This document shows positions 21,098-54,650 of a DNA stretch of 64,000 nucleotides, one piece after another. The notes under the pieces are model-generated. The model was given only the letters and a program-made list of their open reading frames with translations, ran no database searches and was not told where the DNA came from. The stretch covers positions 127,386-191,385 of the forward strand of contig CAWFGT010000011.1 of NCBI GenBank assembly GCA_963815415.1, in the 5' to 3' direction. The translations under genes and the position numbers were made by a program. Position 1 is the stretch's first letter. Each line of letters opens with the position of its first letter. This stretch comes from an uncultured Actinomycetota bacterium (lineage in GTDB: Bacteria > Actinomycetota > Actinomycetes > Actinomycetales > Micrococcaceae).

Positions 21098-22204
21098 CTA
21101 TTTTTCTTCCAGTCCCAGTTCTGCGGCAACGGTGACGACGTCGTTGGAGACCTTGACCGGCTGCACGTCGCTGCCGTCTTCGGTCCGGAGGGCCCACTGC
21201 GGGTCTTTGAGGCCGTGGCCGGTTACGGTGATCACGATCGTCTTCCCGGCGGGCACCTCCCCCGCGGCGTGCTTCTTGATCAGGCCGGCGACGCCGGCGG
21301 CGGAGCCCGGCTCCACGAATACCCCTTCGCGGGCGGACAGCCAGCGGTGGGCGGCGAGGATTTCCTCGTCCGTGACTGCTTCGATCAGTCCGCCGGACTC
21401 GTCGCGGGCAGCAACAGCCGTGTCCCAGGAGGCGGGGTTGCCGATCCGGATGGCCGTGGCAATGGTGTCCGGTTCGGTGATGGGGTGACCGGCAACAAAC
21501 GGAGCCGCGCCGGCGGCCTGAAAGCCCCACATGACAGGCGTCTTGGTGGAGACTGCAGGCAGCGTGCCGGCCGTTGCGGAGGCATACGGCGCCGCGTACT
21601 CCTTATAGCCCTTCCAGTACGCGCTGATGTTGCCGGCGTTGCCGACCGGAAGCACATGGTAGTCGGGCGCGTCACCGAGGGAGTCGACGATCTCGAACGC
21701 ACCGGTTTTCTGGCCCTCGATCCGGGCGGGGTTGACGGAGTTGACCAGGAAGACCGGGTAGGACTCGCCAAGCTTGCGCGCGATGTCCAGGCAGTCGTCG
21801 AAGTTGCCGTCGACCTGCAGCAGCGTGGCCCCGTGGGCGATCGCCTGGGACAGCTTGCCCATGGAAATCTTTCCCTCGGGGACCAGCACGGCGCACTGCA
21901 GCCCGGCAGCGGTCGCGTAGGCCGCGGCCGAGGCGGAGGTGTTGCCGGTGGAAGCGCACACCACCGCCTTGGCGCCGGCGGCGACTGCGGCCGTCATGGC
22001 CATGGTCATTCCGCGGTCCTTGAAGGAACCGGTCGGGTTCATGCCTTCGACCTTGAGGTACACCGAGGAACCCGTCAGTTCGGACAACTTCTGCGCGTGG
22101 ACCAGCGGCGTGCCGCCCTCGCCGAGGGTGATGACCTTCGTGGCCTCGGTGACCGGCAGACGTTCAGCATATTCGCGGATGACTCCGCGCCATTGGTGAG
22201 CCAC
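21098..22204 (-). CDS. thrC: Threonine synthase
   Basis: 368 aa. PLP-lysine motif ([12 protein letters not shown]) and full-length homology. The GTG start abuts the hom stop. Confidence 0.95.
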
Positions 22205-23521
22205 TTAGACCCCTTCTACCCGCAGTACGGATGTGACGGAATTGACGACGTCCAGGCCCTTGACGGCCTCGACGGTTGCTGCGAGGGCAGCTTCGGTTGC
22301 GCGGTGCGTCACGATCCGCAGCTCCGCCGACTCCACGGAGGAGTCCTCGGAGCGGTGAATGGTCTGCCGCATGATCTCAATGGACACGCCGTGCTCCGCA
22401 AAGAGCTGCGCGATCCGGGCCAGGACGCCCGGCTGGTCAGCGACGTCGAGACCGATGTAGTAGCTCGTGACGGCGGCGTCGATGGGCAGCGCAGGGACGT
22501 TTCCGGTGCTGGTTTCCGTGCCGGCCGGGCCGCCCAGGACGATCCGGCGGGCGGCGGAGACGAGGTCGCCCAGGACGGCGGAGGCCGTCGGGGTCCCGCC
22601 GGCGCCCTGGCCGTAGAACATCAGCTCCCCGGCGTTCTCGGCTTCGACGAAGACGGCATTGAAGGCGCCGCGGACGGCGCCCAGCGGGTGGTCCCGCGGC
22701 AGCAGTGTCGGGTGGACCCGCACGGAGACGCCGGCGTTGCCCTGCTCATCGGTGAGTTTCTCGGCGATCGCGAGCAGCTTGATAACGAAGCCCGCGTCCT
22801 TCGCGGCCGCAATGTCGGCCGCGCTGACGGAACTGATGCCCTCGCAGTAGACGTCTTCCAGGGCGAACCGGGTGTGGAAAGAGAGGGCAGCAAGGATGGC
22901 GGCCTTCGACGCGGCGTCATGGCCTTCGACGTCGGCGGTGGGGTCGGCTTCCGCGTAGCCCAGGCGCTGTGCCTCGGCGAGTGCGTCGGCGAACTGCGCC
23001 CCGGTGGAGTCCATCTGGTCCAGGATGAAGTTCGTGGTGCCGTTGACGATCCCGAGCACGCGGGTGATCCGGTCACCGGAGAGGCTGTCCCGGATAGGCC
23101 GCAGGATGGGGATCGCTCCGGCCACGGCGGCCTCGTAGGAGAGCTGCACGCCGGCGCGGTCCGCTTCCTCGTGAAGGGTTGCGCCGTCCTGCGCCAGCAG
23201 CGCCTTATTACCGGTGACGACGCAGGCGCCGTTGCGCAGCGCGCTGAGGATGAGGCTGCGGGCAGGTTCGATCCCGCCCATGAGTTCCACGACGAGGTCG
23301 GCGTCCTTGACGAGGGAGTCGGCGTCGGTAGTGAAGAGTTCCTGCGGCAGTTCGACGTCGCGCTTCGCTTCGAGGTTCCGGACGGCGATACCGGTCAGTT
23401 CCAGGCGTGCCCCGGTGCGGGAAGCCAGCGCCTCGGCGTCCTCGAGGAGAATTCGTGCAACCTGGGCCCCGACGTTGCCACAGCCCAGCAGGGCTACTTT
23501 CAGGGTTCGCAATTCAGTCAT
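22205..23521 (-). CDS. hom: Homoserine dehydrogenase (with C-terminal ACT domain)
   Basis: 438 aa. N-terminal Rossmann motif VALLGCGNVGAQV and homoserine-DH catalytic region (GIVNGTTNFIL). ACT-like tail. Confidence 0.95.
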   Translation of the reverse strand: MTELRTLKVALLGCGNVGAQVARILLEDAEALASRTGARLELTGIAVRNLEAKRDVELPQELFTTDADSLVKDADLVVELMGGIEPARSLILSALRNGACVVTGNKALLAQDGATLHEEADRAGVQLSYEAAVAGAIPILRPIRDSLSGDRITRVLGIVNGTTNFILDQMDSTGAQFADALAEAQRLGYAEADPTADVEGHDAASKAAILAALSFHTRFALEDVYCEGISSVSAADIAAAKDAGFVIKLLAIAEKLTDEQGNAGVSVRVHPTLLPRDHPLGAVRGAFNAVFVEAENAGELMFYGQGAGGTPTASAVLGDLVSAARRIVLGGPAGTETSTGNVPALPIDAAVTSYYIGLDVADQPGVLARIAQLFAEHGVSIEIMRQTIHRSEDSSVESAELRIVTHRATEAALAATVEAVKGLDVVNSVTSVLRVEGV

Positions 23522-25027
23522 TCAGACTCCCATGTCGCGGTTGAGCAGATCTTCTTCGGTTTCCCCGCGGACAATGAGCCGGGCAGATCCGTCGCGCACA
23601 GCGACAACGCCCGGCCGGGCCAGATAGTTGTAGTTGCTAGACAGGGCCCAGCAGTAGGCGCCGGTCCCCGGTACAGCGAGCAGATCACCGGCTGCCACGT
23701 CCTCGGGCAGATATACATCTCTAACAACTATGTCGCCGCTCTCGCAATGTTTGCCCACCACGCGGGACAGTTGCGCCGCCGCGTCCGTGGTCCGCGATGC
23801 CAGAATCGCCGAATAATCCGCGTCGTACAGCACCGGACGGGCGTTGTCGCTCATGCCGCCGTCCACCGACACATACCGGCGGGGGTGCGTAACGTTCCCT
23901 CCCCCGGCAGGCCCTGCCGCTGCGGTTTCCGCGGTTCCTTCAGCGGGGGCGTCGACACGGACGGTCTTGAGTGTGCCGACTTCGTAGAGGGTGAAGGTGC
24001 TGCTGCCGACGATCGCACGGCCCGGTTCGATCGAGATCCGGGGCGCGTCAATGCCCAGTTCCGCACATTTGGAACGGACGACGGCGGCCATGGCCTGCGC
24101 GATCTCGGCCGCGGGGCGCGGGGTGTCCACCGGGGTGTAGGCGATGCCGTAACCGCCACCGAGGTCGAGTTCCGGCAGCACGATCGAGTACTTCTCCTGC
24201 ATGGCGGCCAGGAATTCGAGCAGCTTCACGGCGGCCAGGGCGAAGCCGTCGGGCTCGAAGATCTGGGAGCCGATGTGGCAGTGCAGCCCCAGCAGCTCGA
24301 TGCTGTCGTAGCCTGCGGCCGCAGCCACGGCTTCTTCCGCCGCGGACAGTCCGGCCCGGTCGGTGGAGTCTCCGGCCATGGACAGACCGAACTTCTGGTC
24401 CTCGTGCGCCGTGGCGATGAATTCGTGGGTGTGGGCGTGGACCCCGGGGGTGAGCCGGAGCATGACCTTGGCGGTGTCGCCGCGGTTGCCGGCGATCGCC
24501 GCGACGCGGTCCAGCTCGGCCAGGCTGTCCACCACGATCCTCCCCAGGCCCATGTCGAGGGCGCGGTGGATCTCGGCGTCGGACTTGTTGTTGCCGTGCA
24601 GCGCGACGTCGGCGCCCGGGATTCCGGCGCGGGCCGCGACGGCGAGTTCCCCGCCGGACGCGGTATCGAGCCGGAGCCCTTCTTCCTCGACCCACCGGAC
24701 GACGGACGTGCACAGGAACGATTTCCCGGCGTAGTAGACGTCCACGCCGCCGCAGATGTCCGCGAACGCGTCATTGAAGGCGTCGCTGAAGGCCCGGGCC
24801 CTGGCCCGGAAATCGGTCTCGCTCATGACGAACAGCGGGGTACCGAACTGGCGCTTGAGTTCGCTGACGGAAATCCCGTCGATGCTGAGCTCGCCGTCGT
24901 TGTTCCGCCCGACGCCGGCCGCCCACAGCGGTTCGTGGAGTTCATTGAGGTCGGCAGGAACCTGCAGCCACGACGGCGCCAGCGGGGAGGCCTCGGCGGG
25001 TGTGGTGTTCATGGAAGTCGCGTTCAT
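23522..25027 (-). CDS. lysA: Diaminopimelate decarboxylase
   Basis: 501 aa. Orn/DAP/Arg decarboxylase fold (YAGKSF, HCHIGSQ, GGGYGI, VSVDGGMSDN, CESGD). Confidence 0.95.
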   Translation of the reverse strand: MNATSMNTTPAEASPLAPSWLQVPADLNELHEPLWAAGVGRNNDGELSIDGISVSELKRQFGTPLFVMSETDFRARARAFSDAFNDAFADICGGVDVYYAGKSFLCTSVVRWVEEEGLRLDTASGGELAVAARAGIPGADVALHGNNKSDAEIHRALDMGLGRIVVDSLAELDRVAAIAGNRGDTAKVMLRLTPGVHAHTHEFIATAHEDQKFGLSMAGDSTDRAGLSAAEEAVAAAAGYDSIELLGLHCHIGSQIFEPDGFALAAVKLLEFLAAMQEKYSIVLPELDLGGGYGIAYTPVDTPRPAAEIAQAMAAVVRSKCAELGIDAPRISIEPGRAIVGSSTFTLYEVGTLKTVRVDAPAEGTAETAAAGPAGGGNVTHPRRYVSVDGGMSDNARPVLYDADYSAILASRTTDAAAQLSRVVGKHCESGDIVVRDVYLPEDVAAGDLLAVPGTGAYCWALSSNYNYLARPGVVAVRDGSARLIVRGETEEDLLNRDMGV

Positions 25028-25029
25028 GG

Positions 25030-26694
25030 TTACATCCGTTCCGGCGCCGAGACGCCCAGCAGTTCCAGTCCGTTGGCCAGCACCTGGCTGGTGGCGTCGT
25101 TGAGCCAGAGCCGGGTGCGGTTGAGGTCCGTGATGGCTTCCTCGCCCTGGGGCGCCACGCGGCAGGCATCGTACCAGCGGTGGTAGGCGCCGGCGATGAC
25201 TTCCAGGTGCCGGGCGACGCGGTGCGGCTCGCGCAGTTCCGCGGCTTTGGCCACGATCGAGGGGTAGCTGCCCAGGTAGGACAGGAGTTCGTTCTCCGTC
25301 GGGTGGTCCAGCAGTGCGGCCTCGAAGGCGTCCCTGCCGTCAACCCGGCGCTCCACCCCGGCCGCCACGGCGTTCCGGGCGGTGCCGCGGGAACGGGCGT
25401 GGGCGTACTGGACATAGAAGACCGGGTTCTCGTTGCTGTGCTTCTTGAGCAGCTCCGGATCCAGGGTCAGCGGTGAATCGGCCGGGAAACGGGCCAGCGA
25501 GTAGCGGACGGCGTCCTTGCCGAGCCAGGAGATGAGGTCCTTAAGCTCGATGATGTTGCCGGCACGTTTGGAGAGCTTGGCCCCGTTGACGGAGACAAGC
25601 TGGCCGATCAGGACCTCGATGTTGACCTCGGGGTCGTCACCGGCCGCGGCCGCGATCGCCTTGAGCCGGTGGATGTAGCCGTGGTGGTCGGCACCGAGAA
25701 GGTAGATCTTCTCCGTGTAGCCGCGGTCCTTCTTGGAGAGGTAGTAGGCGGCGTCGGCGGCGAAGTACGTGGGCTCGCCGTTGGCGCGGATCATCACCCG
25801 GTCCTTGTCATCGCCGAAGTCCGTGGTGCGCAGCCAGACCGCGCCGCCGTCGTCGTAGACATGTCCCTGCTCGCGGAGCCGCGCGACGGCGTCAGCAATC
25901 GCGCCGGCGTCGTGGAGTTCCTGTTCGGAGAAGTAGACGTCGAAGTCGACGCCGAACTCGCCCAGCGTCTGCTTGATGTCCTGCAGCTGCGCCTTGTAGG
26001 CCGCGCCGCGGATCACCGGGAGCGCCGCGACGTCGGTGAGTTCGCGGATGTCCGGGTGGCGGGTCAGGACCTCGTGGCCGAGGTCCGCAATGTATCCGCC
26101 GGGGTACCCGCCCTCAGGCATGTCCCTGCCGTGCATCCGGGCGAGGACGGACTGGGCGAAGACGTTCATCTGCGTTCCGGCGTCGTTGATGTAGTACTCG
26201 GCGGTGACGTCGGCCCCGGAGGCGCGCAGCACCCGCGCGATCGAGTCGCCCAGCGCCGCCCAGCGGGTGTGGCCGATGTGCAGCGGCCCGGTGGGGTTGG
26301 CCGAGACGAACTCCATGTTGACCACGCGTCCGGCGAGCGCCGAGTTGGTGCCGTAGGCCGGGCCCGCTTCGACGATGGCCCGTGCCAGGGCCCCCGCGGC
26401 AGCCGCGTCCACCGTGATGTTCAGGAATCCGGGTCCGGCGATGTCCACGGCGGAGACGCCATCGATGGTCTTCAGCCGGGCGCTGAGGACGGCGGCGAAT
26501 TCCCGCGGATTGATGCCCGCCGCCTTGGCCAGCTGCAGGGCGATGTTGGTGGCCCAGTCGCCGTGGTCCCTGTTCTTCGGACGTTCGACGCGCACCGCGT
26601 CGGGAATGTCGGTAGCCGACAGTGCGATGTCGCCGCCGGCGACGGCGTCTTTCAGGCAGGCGGATATGGCGAGGGAAAGTTCTTCTGGGGTCAC
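25030..26694 (-). CDS. argS: Arginine--tRNA ligase
   Basis: 554 aa. HIGH motif (PTGPLHIGHTRWAALGD) and class-I ArgRS architecture. GTG start. Confidence 0.97.
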   Translation of the reverse strand: MTPEELSLAISACLKDAVAGGDIALSATDIPDAVRVERPKNRDHGDWATNIALQLAKAAGINPREFAAVLSARLKTIDGVSAVDIAGPGFLNITVDAAAAGALARAIVEAGPAYGTNSALAGRVVNMEFVSANPTGPLHIGHTRWAALGDSIARVLRASGADVTAEYYINDAGTQMNVFAQSVLARMHGRDMPEGGYPGGYIADLGHEVLTRHPDIRELTDVAALPVIRGAAYKAQLQDIKQTLGEFGVDFDVYFSEQELHDAGAIADAVARLREQGHVYDDGGAVWLRTTDFGDDKDRVMIRANGEPTYFAADAAYYLSKKDRGYTEKIYLLGADHHGYIHRLKAIAAAAGDDPEVNIEVLIGQLVSVNGAKLSKRAGNIIELKDLISWLGKDAVRYSLARFPADSPLTLDPELLKKHSNENPVFYVQYAHARSRGTARNAVAAGVERRVDGRDAFEAALLDHPTENELLSYLGSYPSIVAKAAELREPHRVARHLEVIAGAYHRWYDACRVAPQGEEAITDLNRTRLWLNDATSQVLANGLELLGVSAPERM

Positions 26695-26852
26695 GGTTCT
26701 AGCCTACCGGTGGGCCGGAGTGTCGAAGAATCTGGCGTCCCGCCGGACGGGGTGAACCTATACGCTGAACTCGACGTTATAAGTGACATCACTGAAACAG
26801 CTGTCCCCGAGTACCCCGCCCGTCCGGTTGTCGCAACGAATCGAGTCACTAT

Positions 26853-27311
26853 ATGAATTCCGTATTCCGCAAAAGCATCCTCGCCGGCATCGCCGGCCTG
26901 TCCCTGGCCGGCACGGCCGCCGGATGCGCCCCGGCGCAGACCCCGGCCGCAGAGGCGGCCCCCTCCACCCCGGGGTCCGCAACCTCAGGCTCCGCCGCTG
27001 CCGGCGGAGCCTCCGCAGCCTATAAGGACGGGACCTATAGCGCCGACGGCAACTACGTATCGCCCAACGGCACGGAAACGGTGGGCGTCGAGCTGACCCT
27101 GGCCGACGGCGTGGTATCCGGCGTCCAGATCACGCCGCATCCGTCCAATCCCAATACCAAGAAGTTCCAGGGCGAGTTCGCCGGCGGGATCCAGGACCAG
27201 ATCGTGGGGAAGAAACTGGACGCGATCAGTGTCTCGAAGGTGGCCGGGTCCTCGCTGACCAGCGGCGGCTTCAACGAGGCCGTGGCCAAGATCAAAACCC
27301 AGGCATCGTAG
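26853..27311 (+). CDS. FMN-binding-domain lipoprotein (predicted ApbE flavinylation substrate)
   Basis: Signal peptide plus lipobox (SLAGTAAGC, Cys25), an Ala/Pro/Ser linker, then an FMN_bind-like domain. It ends in VSKVAGSSLTSGGF, a variant of the D-x-x-[ST]-G-A-[ST] flavinylation motif. Confidence 0.8.
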   Translation: MNSVFRKSILAGIAGLSLAGTAAGCAPAQTPAAEAAPSTPGSATSGSAAAGGASAAYKDGTYSADGNYVSPNGTETVGVELTLADGVVSGVQITPHPSNPNTKKFQGEFAGGIQDQIVGKKLDAISVSKVAGSSLTSGGFNEAVAKIKTQAS

Positions 27312-27346
27312 CCGGGCCGGACAGGCGGCGAAGCCAAGGAGAGGAC

Positions 27347-28219
27347 GTGCCGCATCCAGGCTGGACGTCATTCACGTTCGACGGAATCGGAACCGGCTGG
27401 GAAATCTCGACGCCGTCGGCGTTGTCCGCCGACGACCGCCGGCACCTGCTTGGCGTTGTGGCCGGCTACGACACCACCTGGTCCCGTTTCCGGACCGACT
27501 CGCTCGTGGCGGCGATCGCGCGCAGTCCGGGGCGTCGAGAATTTCCCGACGAGGCGGCCGAACTGGGCCGGCTGTACGCTGCGCTCTACCGCCTCACCGG
27601 CGGCGCCATGACGCCGCTGGTCGGCGGCAGCCTGGTGCAGCTCGGCTACGACGCGCAGTATTCCCTGCGGGCGGCCGGCCCGCCGCTGCCCGCGCCGCGG
27701 TGGGAGGACGTTCTGCACTGGCAGGGGTCCATGGTGACCACTGCGGCCCCTGTCACGATCGACGTCGGCGCCGCCGGCAAGGGGCAGCTGGCGGATCTGC
27801 TCTCAGCCGCGCTGGCGGCCCGCGGTCACGCCGGGCACTTCATCGACGCCAGCGGGGACCTGCTCAACGGCGGACCGGCCCCCGTGACGGTGGCGCTGGA
27901 GCACCCTTCGGACCCCGGCCAGGCCATCGGCACCGTGGTGCTGGGTCCGGGTGCCCTGTGCGCCTCGGCCGTCAACCGGCGGGTCTGGGACCGGGATCTC
28001 CACCATGTCCTTGACGGCACCACGGGCGTACCCGTCCGGGGCGTCGTTGCCAGCTGGGCGATGGCCGGAACGGCCATGGCCGCCGACGCGCTCGCGACCG
28101 CGCTCTTTTTCGTCGAGGGGGCACGACTGCAGCGCGAGTTCGATTTCGCCTGGCTCACCGTGTATTCGGACGGGCATGCGGAATTTTCCGCCGACTTCGA
28201 GGGGACACTTTTCTCATGA
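27347..28219 (+). CDS. apbE: FAD:protein FMN transferase (ApbE family), no recognisable signal peptide
   Basis: 290 aa. ApbE signatures (FDGIGTGWEI at the N-terminus, DVGAAGKGQLAD, VLDGTTGVP). GTG start with an AAGGAGAGGA SD. The ORF cannot extend upstream, so there is no room for a signal peptide. Confidence 0.88.
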   Translation: MPHPGWTSFTFDGIGTGWEISTPSALSADDRRHLLGVVAGYDTTWSRFRTDSLVAAIARSPGRREFPDEAAELGRLYAALYRLTGGAMTPLVGGSLVQLGYDAQYSLRAAGPPLPAPRWEDVLHWQGSMVTTAAPVTIDVGAAGKGQLADLLSAALAARGHAGHFIDASGDLLNGGPAPVTVALEHPSDPGQAIGTVVLGPGALCASAVNRRVWDRDLHHVLDGTTGVPVRGVVASWAMAGTAMAADALATALFFVEGARLQREFDFAWLTVYSDGHAEFSADFEGTLFS

Positions 28220-29796
28220 CACTGCATCCAGCGGCTCCGGTAGCCGCCCGGCTGGATACGGCCCTGGGCCGGTTCACCATGTACCGGCTGGTTCTTCTGG
28301 TCCTCGCGGTCCTTGCCGTCTACAGCCTGCTGCTCGACGTTCTCGGCTGGCTGACGTTCGGGGTGCCGGAGCTGCTTGCCCATCTGGTCCTCTGTCTTGG
28401 CCTGACCTACGCCTCCAACCGCGTGCTGGCTGCGGTCTTCCACGTCCGTCCGCACGCGGAATCCTCGCTCATCACGGGCCTGCTGCTGTATTTCCTCTTC
28501 TGGCCCACGCAGCTCACCGACGGTGTGCAGCTGCCGGACCTCGCCGGTGTGGCCCTGGCGTGCGTACTGGCGTCGGCTTCGAAGTATGCCCTGGCCTGGC
28601 GCGGCCGGCACATTTTCAACCCTGCCGCCGCCGGCGCGTTCCTGGCCGGCCTGACCGGCCTGAACATCGCCACCTGGTGGGCTGCGACGCCCGCCATGCT
28701 GTGGCTCGTCGTGCCGGGGGTGCTCCTGGTCCTCTACCGGGTCCGGAAACTGCAGATGGCCGCGGTATTCACGGTCCTCGCCGTCGGCATTGTGACATTC
28801 GAACTGCTCCGCGCGGGCCTGGATACCGGTTCGGCCCTGTGGCAGGCGATCGCGCAACGTCCCGTCCTGTTCTTCGTCGGCTTTATGCTCACCGAGCCGC
28901 TCACGCTGCCGCCGCGTCGCTGGCAGCAGCTGCTGCTCGCCGGCGTCGTCGGGCTGCTGTTCGCGGTGCCGTTCAATCTCGGATTCGCGGCGAACTCCCC
29001 CGAGCTGGCGCTGCTGGTCGGGAACCTGCTCGCATTCGCTGCGGGTCAGCGCCGCGGGATCCGGCTCCGCTTTGAGGGCTCCCGCCCGCTGACGCCAACG
29101 ACGACGGAGTTCCGGTTCCGACCGGAGCACCCCTTGCGGTATGCGGCCGGGCAGTACCTGGAACTCCACCTCCCGCCCGCCAGGGCCGATGGAACCAGGG
29201 CCGACGGAGCGGGAGCCGACGGAGCGGGGGCCGACCGAAAGGGGCCGCGGCGAGTCTTCAGCCTGACAAGTGCGCCAGGGTCTCCCGGGCTGGCGATCGG
29301 CGTGGGCACCGCCGAACCGGTGTCGGCCGCAAAACGGACCCTGCTGGCCCTCGAACCCGGAGACGAGGTGACCGGCACCGCGGTGGGCGGCGACTTTGTC
29401 CTGCCCCGGGACCCCGGGGTACCGGTGCTGCTGATTGCCGCCGGCATCGGCATCACGCCTTACCTCGCCCAGCTGGGCGCCGGCGCCGCCCGGGACCGTG
29501 ACGTTGTCCTGCTGTACCTGGTCCGGAACGCCGCCGAGCTTGCTTACGCCGACGAACTCGAACGCTCCGGAGCCCGCGTCATCGTCCGGCTCGCCGACGG
29601 ATCCACCCCGCCCGGCTTCGCACAGGATGCCGGGCAGGCGCGGCTGGACGGGGCGCGGCTCCGCGAGCTTGTCCCGGATATTGCCATGCGGCAGGTATTC
29701 GTCTCCGGGTCCCCGGCGAGTGTGCGTTCCCTGCGGACGGCAGCCCGGGACGCGGGCGCCCGCCGGGTTCATGTGGACTCGTTCGCGGGCTACTGA
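28216..29796 (+). CDS. Fusion protein: RnfD/NqrB-like polytopic membrane domain + FNR-type FAD/NAD(P)H oxidoreductase domain
   Basis: The N-terminal ~290 aa are multi-TM with HIFNPAAAG and FFVGFMLTEPLT (the FM-x-T-D/E-P-x-T motif of the NqrB/RnfD family). The C-terminal ~230 aa carry RVFSLTS (an RxYS-type FAD site), LLIAAGIGITP (NAD(P)H GxGxxP) and FVSGSP. ATGA overlap with apbE. Confidence 0.7.
   Translation: MTLHPAAPVAARLDTALGRFTMYRLVLLVLAVLAVYSLLLDVLGWLTFGVPELLAHLVLCLGLTYASNRVLAAVFHVRPHAESSLITGLLLYFLFWPTQLTDGVQLPDLAGVALACVLASASKYALAWRGRHIFNPAAAGAFLAGLTGLNIATWWAATPAMLWLVVPGVLLVLYRVRKLQMAAVFTVLAVGIVTFELLRAGLDTGSALWQAIAQRPVLFFVGFMLTEPLTLPPRRWQQLLLAGVVGLLFAVPFNLGFAANSPELALLVGNLLAFAAGQRRGIRLRFEGSRPLTPTTTEFRFRPEHPLRYAAGQYLELHLPPARADGTRADGAGADGAGADRKGPRRVFSLTSAPGSPGLAIGVGTAEPVSAAKRTLLALEPGDEVTGTAVGGDFVLPRDPGVPVLLIAAGIGITPYLAQLGAGAARDRDVVLLYLVRNAAELAYADELERSGARVIVRLADGSTPPGFAQDAGQARLDGARLRELVPDIAMRQVFVSGSPASVRSLRTAARDAGARRVHVDSFAGY
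29182..29241 (+). repeat. In-frame 15-nt tandem repeat (4 units) inside the reductase domain
   Basis: AGGGCCGATGGAACC / AGGGCCGACGGAGCG / GGAGCCGACGGAGCG / GGGGCCGACCGAAAG encodes RADGT-RADGA-GADGA-GADRK, between the first FAD-domain strands and the RVFSLTS motif. Confidence 0.85.
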
Positions 29797-29894
29797 GCGG
29801 TTCTCAGCGACACTCCGCGCGTCGATTTTCCTTTGTGGGCCTCATTCCTGCTAAGCTCTAGGACGTCCCGCCGGTAACGGCAGGATCCCTGATT

Positions 29895-29967
29895 GCCCTC
29901 GTAGCTCAGGGGATAGAGCGTCTGCCTCCGGAGCAGAAGGTCGTTGGTTCGATTCCAATCGAGGGCA
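29895..29967 (+). tRNA. tRNA-Arg (anticodon CCG)
   Basis: Hand-folded cloverleaf: acceptor GCCCTCG/CGAGGGC, D arm GCTC-AGGGGATA-GAGC, anticodon stem TCTGC/GCAGA with loop CTCCGGA, variable loop AGGTC, T arm GTTGG-TTCGATT-CCAAT. 73 nt; CCA is not encoded. Confidence 0.95.
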
Positions 29968-29977
29968 CAGCAGCGAG

Positions 29978-30011
29978 AACCCGCCGTTTCACTGGAAACG
30001 GCGGGTTTTTG
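29978..30011 (+). terminator. Intrinsic terminator after tRNA-Arg
   Basis: AACCCGCCGTTTC-ACTG-GAAACGGCGGGTT followed by a TTTTT tract. Confidence 0.8.
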
Positions 30012-30129
30012 CATTCCCGCCTCCTGTGACCCGGCCGGAACTTCACCTTGAGGTAGCCGCCTGCGGCCGATTGTCGGCGCCTGCCCGTAGGCTGTTCGCA
30101 TCGTCAGCGGAAGCACAAAGGGGTCTCGC

Positions 30130-31182
30130 ATGTTTTGTTCCATCATCCCGCCGTACCTGCTGCGCCGCGTGGCGTCGCTGCACGAACCCCGGCTCTCCGA
30201 GGCTGCCGCGGCGGCGCGGAAAGCCTTGCGGCAGGCCCCCGGCTTCCAGGCGACCCGTGAGCAGTTGGCTCCCGGCTCTCCCCCGGCTCCCCCGGGCCTG
30301 CGCGGAGAAAAGCCCGGCCCGCCGGAGCGGACCATCTATGACGCCGCGTCCACCGAGGAGCTCCCGGGCACCGTGGTCCGCAAGGAAGGTTCGCCGCCGA
30401 CCGGCGACCCTGCTGCGGACGAAGCCTACGAGGGACTGGGGCACACCCACCGGCTGTACACGGACGCCTTCGGCCGCGACTCCATCGACGGCCGCGGCCT
30501 GCCGCTCAACGCCACCGTGCACTACGGCGAGCGCTACGACAACGCGTTCTGGGACGGCCGGCAGATGGTCTTCGGCGACGGAGACGGCCAGATCTTTGAC
30601 CGCTTCACGAAGTCCCTGAGCGTGATCGGCCACGAACTCGCCCACGGGGTCACGCAGTACTCGACCGGACTGGTCTACCGGTACCAGGCCGGCGCCCTGA
30701 ACGAATCCGTGTCCGATGTCTTCGGGGCCCTCGTCGAGCAATACGCAAAACAGCAGTCCACCGCCGAGGCGAGCTGGCTGATCGGAGAAGGCCTTTTCAC
30801 GGACGAGGTCCAGGGTTCGGCCCTGCGGTCCATGAAGGCACCGGGTACGGCCTATGACGACGACATCCTCGGCAAGGACCCGCAACCGGACTCCATGGAC
30901 TCCTACATCCGGACCAGCGCGGACAACGGCGGGGTGCACCTGAACTCCGGCATTCCCAACCGGGCCTTCTGCCTCGTCGCGACGGCGCTGGGCGGAAATG
31001 CGTGGGAGACGCCCGCGCAGATCTGGTACGAGACCCTGACCGGAGGATCCCTTGCGCCCAAGGCGACTTTCCGGACGTTCGCCCGGGCCACGGCCGGCAC
31101 CGCGAGGGAACGCTTCGGGGCGGATTCGAAAGAGCATGACGCCGTGCGGTCCGCGTGGGAAACTGTGAAGGTAAGGCTCTAA
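30130..31182 (+). CDS. M4-family (thermolysin-like) metallopeptidase, protealysin-like, no signal peptide
   Basis: 350 aa. HELAHGV zinc motif plus the downstream GALNESVSDVFG (third zinc ligand Glu). The N-terminal FCSIIPPYLL is typical of the short propeptide of protealysin-like proteases. Confidence 0.88.
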   Translation: MFCSIIPPYLLRRVASLHEPRLSEAAAAARKALRQAPGFQATREQLAPGSPPAPPGLRGEKPGPPERTIYDAASTEELPGTVVRKEGSPPTGDPAADEAYEGLGHTHRLYTDAFGRDSIDGRGLPLNATVHYGERYDNAFWDGRQMVFGDGDGQIFDRFTKSLSVIGHELAHGVTQYSTGLVYRYQAGALNESVSDVFGALVEQYAKQQSTAEASWLIGEGLFTDEVQGSALRSMKAPGTAYDDDILGKDPQPDSMDSYIRTSADNGGVHLNSGIPNRAFCLVATALGGNAWETPAQIWYETLTGGSLAPKATFRTFARATAGTARERFGADSKEHDAVRSAWETVKVRL

Positions 31183-31239: not shown

Positions 31240-31572
31240 ATGAATCTACTGCCCAACGAAGGTCACAGTCTGCTGAAAATCACCGTGGAACGCAGCGGAG
31301 GCTTTGCCGGCATCAAACGGATCTGGACCGCCGAAGCGGCGACTCCGGACGAAGTGGAGCGCTGGCAGCCGGTCGTCGAGGCGTGCCCGTGGGAGTCCCT
31401 CCCGGCGCGGGGCCAGCGTAACGGCGGCCAGCCGGACCGGTTCATCTACAGTATCCGCGCCGGGCAGCACCGGGCGACGGTGCCGGAGCAGGCCCTGACC
31501 GGTCCGTGGCGGACCCTTGTGGATCTGGCCAAGGAAGCCGCGAAATCACCCCGGCCGCCGGACGGCCGCTAG
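31240..31572 (+). CDS. Emfourin-like protein (candidate proteinaceous inhibitor of the adjacent M4 protease)
   Basis: 110 aa. Sits immediately downstream of the M4 gene, as in protealysin/emfourin bicistrons, and contains the ERSGGFAGI motif recalled for this family. No clear SD, so the start is uncertain. Confidence 0.55.
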   Translation: MNLLPNEGHSLLKITVERSGGFAGIKRIWTAEAATPDEVERWQPVVEACPWESLPARGQRNGGQPDRFIYSIRAGQHRATVPEQALTGPWRTLVDLAKEAAKSPRPPDGR

Positions 31573-32789: not shown

Positions 32790-32910
32790 ACCGCCGCCGG
32801 CACGCCGTGCCTCACCCGACCCGCACCTGACATCCGCACGCTGGACATCGCCTGCTGCCGGGCGCCCCGGGGCCACCCGGGGCGACTTCCCCAGTAGACT
32901 ATGTCCAGCC

Positions 32911-35900
32911 ATGACCTTTCATATTTCCTACCCCGCCGAGCTGCCGGTCTCCGAGCGCCGCGAAGATCTGATGGCAGCCATCGCGGCCAATCAGGTGACC
33001 ATCATCGCCGGCGAGACCGGCTCCGGAAAGACCACCCAGATTCCCAAGATGTGCCTTGAGCTGGGACTGGGCGAGGGCGGCCTGATCGGCCACACCCAGC
33101 CCCGCCGGCTGGCGGCGCGGACGGTCGCCGAGCGCATCGCGGAGGAGCTCGGTGTGGAGATCGGCCAGGAGGTCGGTTTCCAGGTCCGCTTCACCGGCGA
33201 GGTCAGCCGCTCCACGAAGGTCAAGCTCATGACCGACGGCATCCTGCTGGCGGAAATCCAGCGCGACAAGCTGCTGCGCAAGTACAACGCCATCATCATT
33301 GACGAGGCCCATGAGCGCAGCCTCAACATCGACTTCATCCTCGGCTACCTCAAGCGCATCCTGCCGCAGCGCCCGGACCTGAAGATCATCATCACCTCCG
33401 CCACCATCGATCCGCAGCGCTTCGCGAAGCACTTCGGAACCGAGGACGAGCCCTCGCCCATCATCGAGGTTTCCGGCCGCACCTATCCGGTCGAGATCCG
33501 TTACCGCCCGCTGTCCCAGCCGGCCGGCGGCGCAGCCGGCGACGATGCCGTCGCAGCCTCCGACGACGAGCTCGAGGAGGACCGGGACCCGCTCGACGCC
33601 GTCTGCGACGCCGTCGACGAACTCGCACAGGAAGCCCCCGGGGACATCCTCATCTTCTTCTCCGGCGAGCGCGAGATCCGCGACGCGGCCGAGGCCATCA
33701 ACGCACGGATCCAGTCCAACCGGCGGCTCGCCGGCACCGAAGTTCTGCCGCTCTTCGCCCGGCTCAGCCTGCAGGAGCAGCACAAGGTCTTCCACCCCGG
33801 CAGCAAACGCCGGATCGTCCTGGCCACCAACGTCGCGGAGACCTCCCTGACGGTACCGGGCATCAAGTACGTCATCGACACCGGCACGGCCCGCATCTCC
33901 CGCTACTCGCACCGCACCAAGGTCCAGCGCCTGCCGATCGAGCGGGTCTCCCAGGCCTCCGCCAACCAGCGCTCCGGCCGCTGCGGCCGCGTCTCCGACG
34001 GCATCGCGATCCGGCTCTACTCCGAAGAGGACTTCGAGTCCCGCCCGCTCTTCACCGACCCGGAAATCCTGCGCACCAACCTCGCCGCCGTCATCCTGCA
34101 GATGACCGCCATGGGCGTGGCCCGCGGGCCGAAGGACGTGGAAGACTTCCCGTTCGTCGAGCCGCCGGATTCCCGCGCCATCAACGACGGCGTCAGCCTC
34201 CTGCGCGAGCTCGGCGCGCTCCGTCCGCCGGCCTCCGGCGGCCTGACCGCCGTCGGGCAGCAGCTCGCGCAGTTGCCTGTTGACCCGAGGCTGGGCCGGA
34301 TGATCGTCGAGGCCGGCCGGCGCGGCTGCGTCCGTGAGGTCATGATCCTGGCGGCCGCGCTGACGATCCAGGACCCGCGCGAGCGCCCGACCGACAAGCA
34401 GCAGCTCGCCGCCGAGAAACACGCCCGCTTCCGGGATGAGAACTCGGACTTCACCGGCTTTTTGAACCTGTGGAACTATCTGCAGGAGAAGCAGCAGGAA
34501 CTCTCCTCCACCGGCTTCCGCCGGCTGTGCCGGGCCGAATTCATCAACTACCTGCGTGTCCGCGAATGGCAGGATCTCTTCGCCCAGCTGCGCCAGCTGG
34601 CCCGGCCCTTGGGCATCAGCCTGGACAACAAGCGGCTCGCGGACCCGGTGGGCCTCCACGACGGCATCCATATCAGCCTGCTTTCCGGGCTGCTGAGCCA
34701 TGTCGGCATCCTCGACGAGCGCAAGCGCGAGTACGCCGGCGCCCGCGGCAGCCGGTTCGCGATCTTCCCCGGCTCGGCCCTGTTCAAGAAGTCCCACACC
34801 TTCGTGATGGCGGCCGAGCTGGTCGAGACCAGCCGGCTGTGGGCCCGGGTCGCTGCAAAGTTCGATCCGCTCTGGGCCGAGCAGGTGGCGCCGGACCTGG
34901 TCAAGCGCAGCTACAGCGAGCCGCACTGGTCCAAGAAGATGGGCTCGGTGATGGCCCATGAAAAGGTCACGCTCTACGGGGTACCCATCATCCCGAGCCG
35001 CCGCATCAACTACGGCAAGGTCGAACCGGAGCTGTGCCGGGAGCTCTTCATCCGCCATGCCCTCGTGGAGGGCGACTGGCAGACGCACCACAAGTTCTTC
35101 CACCGCAACCGCGCCCTGCTCCACGAGGTCGAGGAGCTGGAGGCGCGGATGCGCCGCCGGGACATCCTGGTCGATGACGAGACGCTGTTCGAGTTCTACG
35201 ACGCACGCGTGGGCAAGGACGTGGTCTCCGAACGGCACTTCGACAAGTGGTGGAAGGAGGCCCGGCAGCAGGACCCTGCCCTGCTGGACTTCGACCAGTC
35301 CCTGCTGATCAGCGAGGACGCCGACGGGCTCGACGACGCAGCCTACCCCAAGACCCTGCTGCACAAAGGCTTCGAACTCCCGCTGAGCTACGAGTTCCAT
35401 CCGGTCGCGCCCGGATCCCCGCCCAATCCCTCCGACGGCGTCACCGCCGAGGTCCCCGTGCTGTTCCTGAACCAGCTCGACGACGCCGCGTTCCGGTGGC
35501 TGATCCCGGGACAGCGCGTCGAACTCGTCACGGCGCTGATCAAGTCGCTGCCGAAGCAGGTGCGCAAGAACTTCGTGCCCGCCCCGGACGTGGCACGCCA
35601 GGCCGTGGCGGCCCTCGAGGCGGACTTCGATCCCGCTGCCGATGAGCTTGAGCCCTCCCTGGAGCTGGTGCTGCGCCGGATCCGCGGCCAGGTCATTCCC
35701 CCGGGGCTCTGGAACTGGGACGCGGTGCCGGCCCACCTGCGGGTCAGCTTCCGGGTCGTGGATTCCCGTGGCAAAATCCTGGACGAGGGCAAGGACCTCG
35801 CGGCCCTGCAGGAGAGGCTGGCCCCGGCCACCCGGCGGGCCATCGCGGAGTCGCTGGGCGCCACCCCGTCGACGACGGCGCCGAAGGCCGCCGGGAAGAC

Positions 35901-54576: not shown

Positions 54577-54650
54577 GAAGTACGCGATGAATGAACTGTG
54601 CTTAATGAACAGTGCCGAGTGAACAGCGTTTGATGAAAAGCGTTTATGAT
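54577..54650. repeat. Degenerate tandem repeat, about 5 x 14 nt, core GAAC(A/T)GTGC
   Basis: GGAAGTACGCGAT / (GAAT)GAACTGTGCTTAAT / GAACAGTGCCGAGT / GAACAGCGTTTGAT / GAAAAGCGTTTATGAT. An AT-richer spacer between the kgd terminator and the next gene. The core resembles the 19999-20111 repeat. Confidence 0.6.

Follow-up and report, generated by a model that had tools for sequence, protein, structure and literature searches.

NQR/RNF-like systems are flavinylation-associated gene clusters built around a protein that combines an N-terminal NqrB/RnfD-like membrane domain with a C-terminal NqrF-like NAD-binding domain, and 127 such gene clusters have been reported, mainly from Actinobacteria and the candidate phyla radiation (Méheust et al. 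2021, eLife, PMC8238504). The same work proposed that they carry electrons in one direction, from NAD(P)H to extracytosolic flavin mononucleotide (FMN). Its definition of the class rests on Pfam, i.e., on the models PF03116, PF00175, and PF04205, and requires that ApbE and/or FMN_bind be encoded no more than five genes away and that one or more of them have a signal peptide or lipidation site. An AlphaFold-multimer model of the complex from Ktedonobacter later showed the FMN site of the NqrC-like subunit adjacent to the flavin pocket in the NqrB-like one, and the flavinylation threonine of NqrB-type proteins was reported not to be conserved across the class (Huang et al. 2024, mSystems, PMC10979944, PMC11334425). 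Here, we describe a three-gene operon in a 64,000-nucleotide stretch of DNA from an uncultured member of the Micrococcaceae (the whole stretch being "the window" in the following) that encodes an FMN_bind lipoprotein (gene 1), a flavin transferase of the ApbE family (gene 2), and an NqrB/RnfD-like membrane domain fused to a reductase of the FNR type (gene 3). We assign this trio to that known, predicted class as a divergent member; it does not amount to a new kind of system.

The three genes are co-directional on the + strand at 26853-27311, 27347-28219, and 28216-29796 according to the open reading frame list, and the overlap of genes 2 and 3 can be read directly as ATGA at 28216-28219. The G+C content is ~66-71%, and the closest homologues, with 96% identity, are found in Arthrobacter and Pseudarthrobacter. 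A preliminary description made from the letters of the window alone had already recognized these tightly linked genes. It had called gene 1 an exported lipoprotein with lipobox Cys25 whose FMN_bind domain ends in VAGSSLTS, a variant of the ApbE flavinylation motif, gene 2 a signal-less ApbE that cannot be extended upstream, and gene 3 a fusion of NqrB/RnfD-like and FNR-type domains. Of the four Pfam matches obtained with the window proteins, three (FMN_bind, NAD_binding_1, and NQR2_RnfD_RnfE) lie under the curated cut-offs, and each domain call was therefore tested at the level of the protein family and by structure. Despite the sub-threshold Pfam scores, family profiles and two high-confidence AlphaFold2 models settled all of these calls in favor of the preliminary description, and its reading of gene order, lipobox, motif, and ApbE start held as well. 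The features of the operon are the following:

26853..27311, + strand: gene 1, FMN_bind lipoprotein of 152 amino acids, NqrC/RnfG-like extracytoplasmic subunit (open reading frame, PF04205, synteny).
26853..26927, + strand: lipoprotein signal peptide, residues 1-25 of gene 1, with lipobox A-A-G-C and the Cys25 codon at 26925-26927 (sequence).
27021..27308, + strand: FMN_bind domain, residues 57-152 of gene 1 (alignment, profile match to 8P2A, Pfam census).
27252..27254, + strand: codon of Ser134, where FMN is predicted to be attached, in S-K-V-A-G-S-S(134)-L-T-S (alignment to 8P2A).
27336..27344, + strand: ribosome-binding site of gene 2, AAGGAGAGG, 4-11 nucleotides before the GTG start (read from sequence).
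27347..28219, + strand: gene 2, ApbE-family FAD:protein FMN transferase (FAD, flavin adenine dinucleotide) of 290 amino acids, without signal peptide, lipobox, or transmembrane segment (PF02424).
28216..29055, + strand: residues 1-280 of gene 3, NqrB/RnfD-like polytopic membrane domain (profile, AlphaFold2, Foldseek).
29056..29796, + strand: residues 281-526 and stop codon of gene 3, FNR-type FAD/NAD(P)H domain, predicted to be cytoplasmic, with RVFSLTS, AAGIGITP, and a C-terminal Tyr (NCBIfam, PDB, Foldseek).
29180..29239, + strand: four tandem copies of a 15-nucleotide repeat that encode (A/T)-x-A-D-G in a low-complexity Ala/Asp/Gly-rich loop of the FAD-binding subdomain, residues ~322-342 of gene 3 (Tandem Repeats Finder, TRF).

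Gene 3 encodes a protein of 526 amino acids in which the motifs HIFNPAAAG, FMLTEPLT, RVFSLTS, and AAGIGITP fall on invariant or near-invariant columns of the family (N135, P136, E227, P228, R346, G410, G412, T414, and P415). The NQR2_RnfD_RnfE model (PF03116) scores 17 bits against a cut-off of 27.7 for the window protein (E = 0.004), yet it matches 38 of 74 diverse full-length members (best 1.2e-9), and a profile of the membrane-domain family searched against the PDB found RnfD of Azotobacter vinelandii (8AHX_D) at E = 8.9e-6. AlphaFold2 modeled the whole protein with a predicted local distance difference test (pLDDT) score of 92.4 and a predicted template modeling (pTM) score of 0.90. A phmmer search of gene 3 against the PDB returned FNR domains only and Foldseek with the whole protein was swamped by FNR structures; the membrane domain was then modeled alone (pLDDT 92.6, pTM 0.89). 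With this second model, the top 15 Foldseek matches in the PDB were exclusively RnfD and NqrB chains (probability 1.00, template modeling score relative to the query, TMq, 0.54-0.65), followed by urea transporters at a non-significant E > 1. A sequence search with residues 1-290 recovered ~1,090 clusters at 50% identity, and most relatives seem to be fused in the same way as gene 3 because most of these clusters are ~500 amino acids long.

The match to 8AHX_D falls into two blocks, and RnfD residues 130-221 have no counterpart in gene 3. The skipped segment presumably holds the FMN-bearing threonine, which we take to be the equivalent of Thr187 of Vibrio cholerae RnfD, and the membrane-domain sequence of gene 3 contains no [S/T]-G-A-[S/T] motif. 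Judging from this alignment, the membrane domain of gene 3 appears to have lost the covalent-FMN loop of NqrB and RnfD, in agreement with the non-conserved flavinylation threonine that Huang et al. reported for NQR/RNF-like systems.

The C-terminal half of gene 3 is akin to Fpr, flavohaemoglobin reductase, and NqrF. While NAD_binding_1 (PF00175) scores 21.2 bits against a cut-off of 22 on the window protein, it is found in 64 of the 74 members, and the same half matches NCBIfam models of the FNR family. As a single sequence, gene 3 found the Fpr structure 3FPK at E = 3.4e-10; the family profile reached up to 3e-22 in the PDB, with NqrF among the matches, and Foldseek with the whole model gave FNR-family matches at 1e-14. 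Positive-inside charges in the loops between the AlphaFold2 helices would put the FNR domain on the cytoplasmic side, along with the N-terminus. The sole low-confidence segment of the gene 3 model, residues 327-342, lies in the repeat-encoded loop listed above. Gene 3 homologues range from 490 to 546 amino acids in length, and this variation probably sits at the repeat loop, which suggests that it is driven by slippage.

Gene 1 starts with MNSVFRKSILAGIAGLSLAGTAAGC, which places the lipobox cysteine at position 25, and the n-region of its signal peptide in the window reads R-K, without R-R. An Ala/Pro/Ser-rich linker follows and leads to a domain of ~95 residues that ends in SKVAGSSLTSGGFNEAVAKIKTQAS. 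PF04205 scores 21 bits on the full-length protein and 22.4 bits on the domain alone, at a cut-off of 22, and a Pfam census detected FMN_bind in 11 of 12 family members (best 9e-6). Searching the PDB with the single gene 1 sequence by phmmer gave nothing meaningful; the family profile resolved the matter, with the FMN-binding domain of 8P2A as its best match. In the profile alignment, A-G-S-S of gene 1 lies over S-G-A-T, the flavinylation motif of 8P2A. The consensus for flavinylation is D-x-x-[S/T]-G-A-[S/T], Ser is accepted as the attachment residue, and a D-to-A change at the first motif position has a minor effect (PMC12052999). Compared with this consensus, S-K-V-A-G-S-S retains the Gly and ends in a hydroxyl residue but has other residues at Asp1, position 4, and Ala6. 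The variant is not a peculiarity of the window, with SKVAGSSLTS present in 115 of 120 gene 1 homologue clusters; 117 of the 120 have a lipobox (106 of these with the Cys at position 25), and all 76 Micrococcaceae gene 1 loci with a readable N-terminus keep the lipobox motif. Gene 1 is thus predicted from its sequence to be an FMN_bind lipoprotein and a candidate covalent FMN carrier at Ser134.

The identity of gene 2 is clear from Pfam (PF02424, 102 bits against a cut-off of 25.6) and from its alignment with TM1553 and the ApbE proteins of Vibrio and E. coli, in which the catalytic-His motif LHHVLD (HH[IV]LD), ADALATA, and GAAGKG are retained; ASGD also aligns with TM1553 and the Vibrio enzyme. 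The canonical T-S-G-x-Y-E-R is replaced throughout this ApbE subfamily by an invariant L-C-[AG]-S-A-x-N-R-R-x-W with an invariant Cys (residues ~201-210 of gene 2). A non-canonical stretch in the enzyme next to a non-canonical motif in its partner (SKVAGSS versus DxxSGAT) suggests that the two may form a co-adapted enzyme-substrate pair. The GTG at 27347 is the first start codon past the preceding in-frame stop, and an earlier start would extend gene 2 into gene 1, in a different frame. The same ApbE start, (V/M)-P-H-P-G-W-x-x-F-x-F-x-G-I-G, follows directly after the gene 1 stop in 78 of 78 Micrococcaceae loci. In the ApbE subfamily as a whole, 120 of 120 cluster representatives from Saccharimonadia and Actinobacteria are 279-310 amino acids long; their core IGT motif falls at residues 5-23, and none of these 120 shows a hydrophobic N-terminus or a genuine lipobox. 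The absence of an export signal on ApbE is therefore a property of the whole family and not of the window locus alone, and the main texts of Méheust 2021 and Huang 2024 make no comment on it.

Synteny was examined in 80 loci, one genome per species and all from Micrococcaceae. The gene order 1-2-3 occurs in 78 of them, with the genes overlapping or abutting, and the remaining two end at contig edges. Distant members were reached via representative clusters and contig look-ups, and the same trio of overlapping or abutting genes was found around relatives with 31-46% identity in Lysinibacter cavernae, Candidatus Saccharimonadales, and metagenome contigs. The ApbE gene directly follows gene 1 in every case and often overlaps it. 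The co-conservation that the preliminary description had asked for thus extends well beyond one family. The distant loci likewise hold the trio alone, without further NQR/RNF subunits, and the full canonical set of NqrA-F or RnfABCDEG was found neither at the window locus nor at distant loci. No further gene is consistently linked to the trio, which is a self-contained module and a real and well-conserved operon.

Saccharimonadia are epibionts that live on Actinobacteria. In Candidatus Saccharimonadales, the trio is located amid housekeeping genes (yebC, ruvCAB, and recA) in a small genome. Its occurrence in both Actinobacteria and these epibionts is compatible with gene transfer between host and epibiont as well as with a core function, and its retention in very small genomes suggests a core rather than an accessory redox role.

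Gene 3 is accompanied by an adjacent ApbE and an adjacent lipoprotein with FMN_bind, as the published definition of the class requires. The window proteins lie below the cut-offs for PF03116, PF00175, and, at full length, PF04205, and precomputed Pfam domains are missing from most of the close homologues of genes 1 and 3. Because the Micrococcaceae proteins fall under the Pfam cut-offs used to define the class, this clade is probably under-represented among the 127 reported clusters, and the class as a whole is probably under-counted.

We consider it likely that the locus is an NQR/RNF-like module for flavin-based electron transfer across the membrane in which gene 2 is a dedicated ApbE that flavinylates gene 1. 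The FNR-type domain of gene 3 would oxidize cytoplasmic NAD(P)H on a non-covalent FAD, and electrons would then cross the membrane through the NqrB/RnfD-fold domain of the same protein, probably via a non-covalently held flavin. They would reach the FMN covalently attached at Ser134 of gene 1, docked on the outer face, and from there go to an acceptor encoded outside the trio. ApbE would install this FMN on gene 1, using FAD as its source, and in the most economical reading would act on the short linear motif near the C-terminus of gene 1 from the cytoplasmic side, before or during export. The preliminary description had envisaged just such a minimal NQR/RNF analogue that passes electrons from NAD(P)H to an extracytosolic flavin, and every structural claim behind it has been upheld; as the idea had already been published, it is a rediscovery, and like the original it is a bioinformatic prediction.

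Several points weigh against this interpretation. ApbE has no export signal although its presumed substrate, the product of gene 1, is exported, and we know of no precedent for Sec export of a protein that already bears FMN. The motif of gene 1 deviates from D-x-x-[S/T]-G-A-[S/T] at three of seven positions. Docking of gene 1 on gene 3, with its FMN at the flavin pocket, would follow by analogy from the published Ktedonobacter model. Among the genes that flank the trio in the window (lysA and argS on the opposite strand, tRNA-Arg, an M4 peptidase with emfourin, an AraC/DJ-1 regulator, and HrpA), there is no acceptor, quinone-linked component, or iron transporter, as the preliminary description had rightly remarked for terminal acceptors. 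Characterized ApbE enzymes with exported substrates are exported themselves (2025 ApbE review). We found no experimental study of NQR/RNF-like systems in the literature.

Most of the tension concerns the side of the membrane on which gene 1 would receive its FMN, and here we weakly favor flavinylation in the cytoplasm, before or during export, on the strength of sequence features. This is feasible in principle because ApbE needs just a 7-residue linear motif, works best close to a terminus, and accepts Ser (PMC12052999), and Ser134 lies 18 residues before the C-terminus of gene 1. Generalized to the class, a dedicated cytoplasmic ApbE would flavinylate the C-terminal motif of its NqrC-like partner, which would then leave the cytoplasm by a Sec-type route, either as a lipoprotein or with a signal anchor; we put this forward tentatively and consider it rather doubtful at present. 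If true, it would be the flavinylated protein that is exported, no FAD supply would be needed outside these monoderm cells, and the current view, by which exported ApbE substrates receive their flavin once outside, would be contradicted. An ApbE without targeting signal in 120 of 120 clusters might alternatively serve a cytoplasmic task, be it the loading or processing of flavin for the membrane domain of gene 3, e.g., as an Ftp-type FAD pyrophosphatase, or the flavinylation of another cytoplasmic site, while gene 1 is flavinylated by a different, exported ApbE whose gene lies elsewhere or binds FMN non-covalently. Such a role would be in line with the cytosolic ApbEs of Klebsiella that serve cytosolic substrates, with the FAD pyrophosphatase activity of some ApbE/Ftp proteins, which a Tyr60-equivalent residue sets apart from FAD-binding ApbEs, with the difference between LC[AG]SAxNRRxW and the canonical TSGxYER, and with the presence of several ApbEs in many genomes. 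We nevertheless regard it as unlikely: gene 1 keeps a near-invariant motif of the flavinylation type, the ApbE gene is always placed directly after gene 1 and often overlaps it, gene 3 has neither an [S/T]-G-[A/S]-[S/T] motif nor a family-specific conserved Ser/Thr candidate, and reliance on a second ApbE seems less likely in Saccharimonadia, which keep the trio, judging from their small genomes. A flavinylation site within gene 3 itself was considered and is not supported: its sequence lacks the motif, and its invariant Ser/Thr residues belong to motifs in common with RnfD.

Another route would bring ApbE to the outer face in an unconventional manner, i.e., by hitch-hiking with gene 1 through the twin-arginine translocation (Tat) pathway, as a read-through or frameshift fusion, or by non-classical secretion, and let it flavinylate gene 1 after export. 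The n-region of Micrococcaceae gene 1 proteins, S-x-R-K-S-V-F, is indeed loosely Tat-like, their h-region is weakly hydrophobic (Kyte-Doolittle 1.57), and 17 loci have the gene 1 stop in the ApbE frame, one codon ahead of the ApbE start. However, RR occurs in just 1 of 120 gene 1 clusters, and the gene 1 partners of the Saccharimonadia type have a strongly hydrophobic N-terminal anchor that belongs to the Sec/signal recognition particle (SRP) type and lacks RR, with a Ser/Thr/Asn-rich linker after it. In the window and most other loci, genes 1 and 2 overlap or do not share a reading frame, so that read-through is not general, and no natural ApbE fusions were found; altogether, we consider this route very unlikely. 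A read-through fusion of gene 1 and ApbE was rejected on the same count of frames. Apparent ApbE–NqrB-like fusion proteins (P0218, P0206, and P0253), which might have revealed the side of the membrane on which ApbE lies, turned out to contain arginine-rich out-of-frame stretches and to be frameshifted gene calls. Tat export of gene 1 after cytoplasmic flavinylation was also discarded as a general explanation in view of the R-K in the window, the hydrophobic Sec-type anchors in Saccharimonadia, and the single cluster with twin arginines, and Tat therefore does not explain the signal-less ApbE. Finally, gene 3 might not be a simple outward conduit and might work as an ion-translocating or reversible NQR/RNF-like device or as a transporter with a regulatory FNR domain. 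NQR and RNF do couple redox reactions to ion translocation, and the NqrB/RnfD fold resembles that of urea and ammonium transporters, with urea transporters as the next fold matches. These matches are not significant, though, NqrD/E and RnfA/E are absent from the cluster, published descriptions are of a one-way pathway, and flavin electron transfer is suggested by the obligate association with ApbE and FMN_bind throughout the family, which makes a device or transporter of this kind very unlikely.

Upstream of gene 1, one further element is conserved:

26752..26778, + strand: conserved block GTGAACC-N-TACGCTGA-N5-ACGTT(GT), i.e., GAAC-N17-CGTT, ~30 nucleotides long and located between argS and gene 1, ~75 nucleotides ahead of the gene 1 ATG (conservation).

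The columns of this block are 80-99% identical across 77 Micrococcaceae loci and the window, and the pattern GTGAAC-N16-18-CGTT occurs twice in the window compared with 0.21 occurrences expected by chance; the second match is at 54619-54644 (+). By its sequence, the block is possibly a promoter of the extracytoplasmic function (ECF) sigma type, resembling those of SigH, SigE, or SigW, or, because the spacer is conserved too, an operator, and it could also belong to the divergent argS instead of gene 1. Rfam returned nothing credible upstream of gene 1, including no FMN riboswitch, and a consensus scan of 26600-30200 found neither a sigma-70 promoter nor an intrinsic terminator. Downstream, a tRNA-Arg(CCG) gene is located at 29895-29968 (+), 99 nucleotides past gene 3, and is followed at 29978-30010 by a perfect GC-rich hairpin, AACCCGCCGTTTC-ACTG-GAAACGGCGGGTT, and five T, which looks like a terminator by eye and was missed by the consensus scan. 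Transcription of the flavin operon may read through into tRNA-Arg. Further along, a thermolysin-family M4 metallopeptidase (30130-31182, +), protealysin-like and apparently without signal peptide, forms a protease-inhibitor pair with a small protein of the emfourin family (31240-31572, +; PF20242). Very long antisense or out-of-frame open reading frames, e.g., at 21215-25186 (+), 27826-29772 (-), and 32899-35736 (-), encode arginine/glycine-rich sequences and are an artefact of the ~68% G+C content, not genes.

The window locus adds a member and not a concept to the published prediction, and its value lies elsewhere. Soil Micrococcaceae such as Arthrobacter, Pseudarthrobacter, and Paenarthrobacter sit under the Pfam thresholds, and the class appears to be much larger than reported. 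These bacteria are also culturable and genetically tractable hosts for a first experimental test of the class. The contrast between a signal-less ApbE and an exported protein as its sole plausible substrate is a concrete and testable inconsistency in the model of extracytosolic flavinylation.

Compared with other known systems, the trio shares with Na+-NQR and RNF the NqrB/RnfD fold, an FNR-type domain akin to the FAD/NADH domain of NqrF, an FMN_bind subunit equivalent to NqrC/RnfG, and maturation that depends on ApbE. Unlike these complexes, it comprises two redox polypeptides and lacks NqrA/D/E, RnfA/B/C/E, and iron–sulfur subunits as well as any quinone or ferredoxin module; the covalent-FMN loop appears to be deleted in gene 3, electron flow is presumably one-way and not semicircular, and there is no sign of ion pumping in the trio. 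The flavin-based extracellular electron transfer system of Listeria (Ndh2, EetA/B, DmkA, PplA, and FmnB, with FmnA/RibU for flavin supply) likewise operates in a monoderm host, uses an ApbE-flavinylated FMN_bind lipoprotein as extracytoplasmic carrier, and is ultimately fed by NAD(P)H. Its membrane step, however, runs through Ndh2, quinone, and EetA/B and not through an NqrB-like/FNR fusion, and its ApbE is extracellular where that of the trio has no export signal: FmnB works in the extracellular space and depends on exported flavin (PMC9973259). The cytosolic ApbE of Klebsiella pneumoniae, which acts on a soluble fumarate reductase, resembles gene 2 in having no signal peptide, and cytosolic ApbEs are mentioned for cytosolic substrates only (2025 ApbE review); the substrate of the Klebsiella enzyme is accordingly cytoplasmic, whereas the sole protein of the trio with a flavinylation-type motif is exported or membrane-anchored. 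The closest match are the NQR/RNF-like systems, with which the trio shares the fusion of an NqrB/RnfD-like and a cytosolic NAD-binding domain, the clustering with ApbE and an FMN_bind protein of the NqrC/RnfG type, the lineages (Actinobacteria and the candidate phyla radiation), and the proposed one-way transfer of electrons from NAD(P)H to extracytosolic FMN. It differs from them in its sub-threshold Pfam scores and in a partner that is a lipoprotein instead of a subunit with a transmembrane anchor, and the ~1,090 membrane-domain clusters at 50% identity to which its gene 3 leads compare with 127 reported gene clusters.

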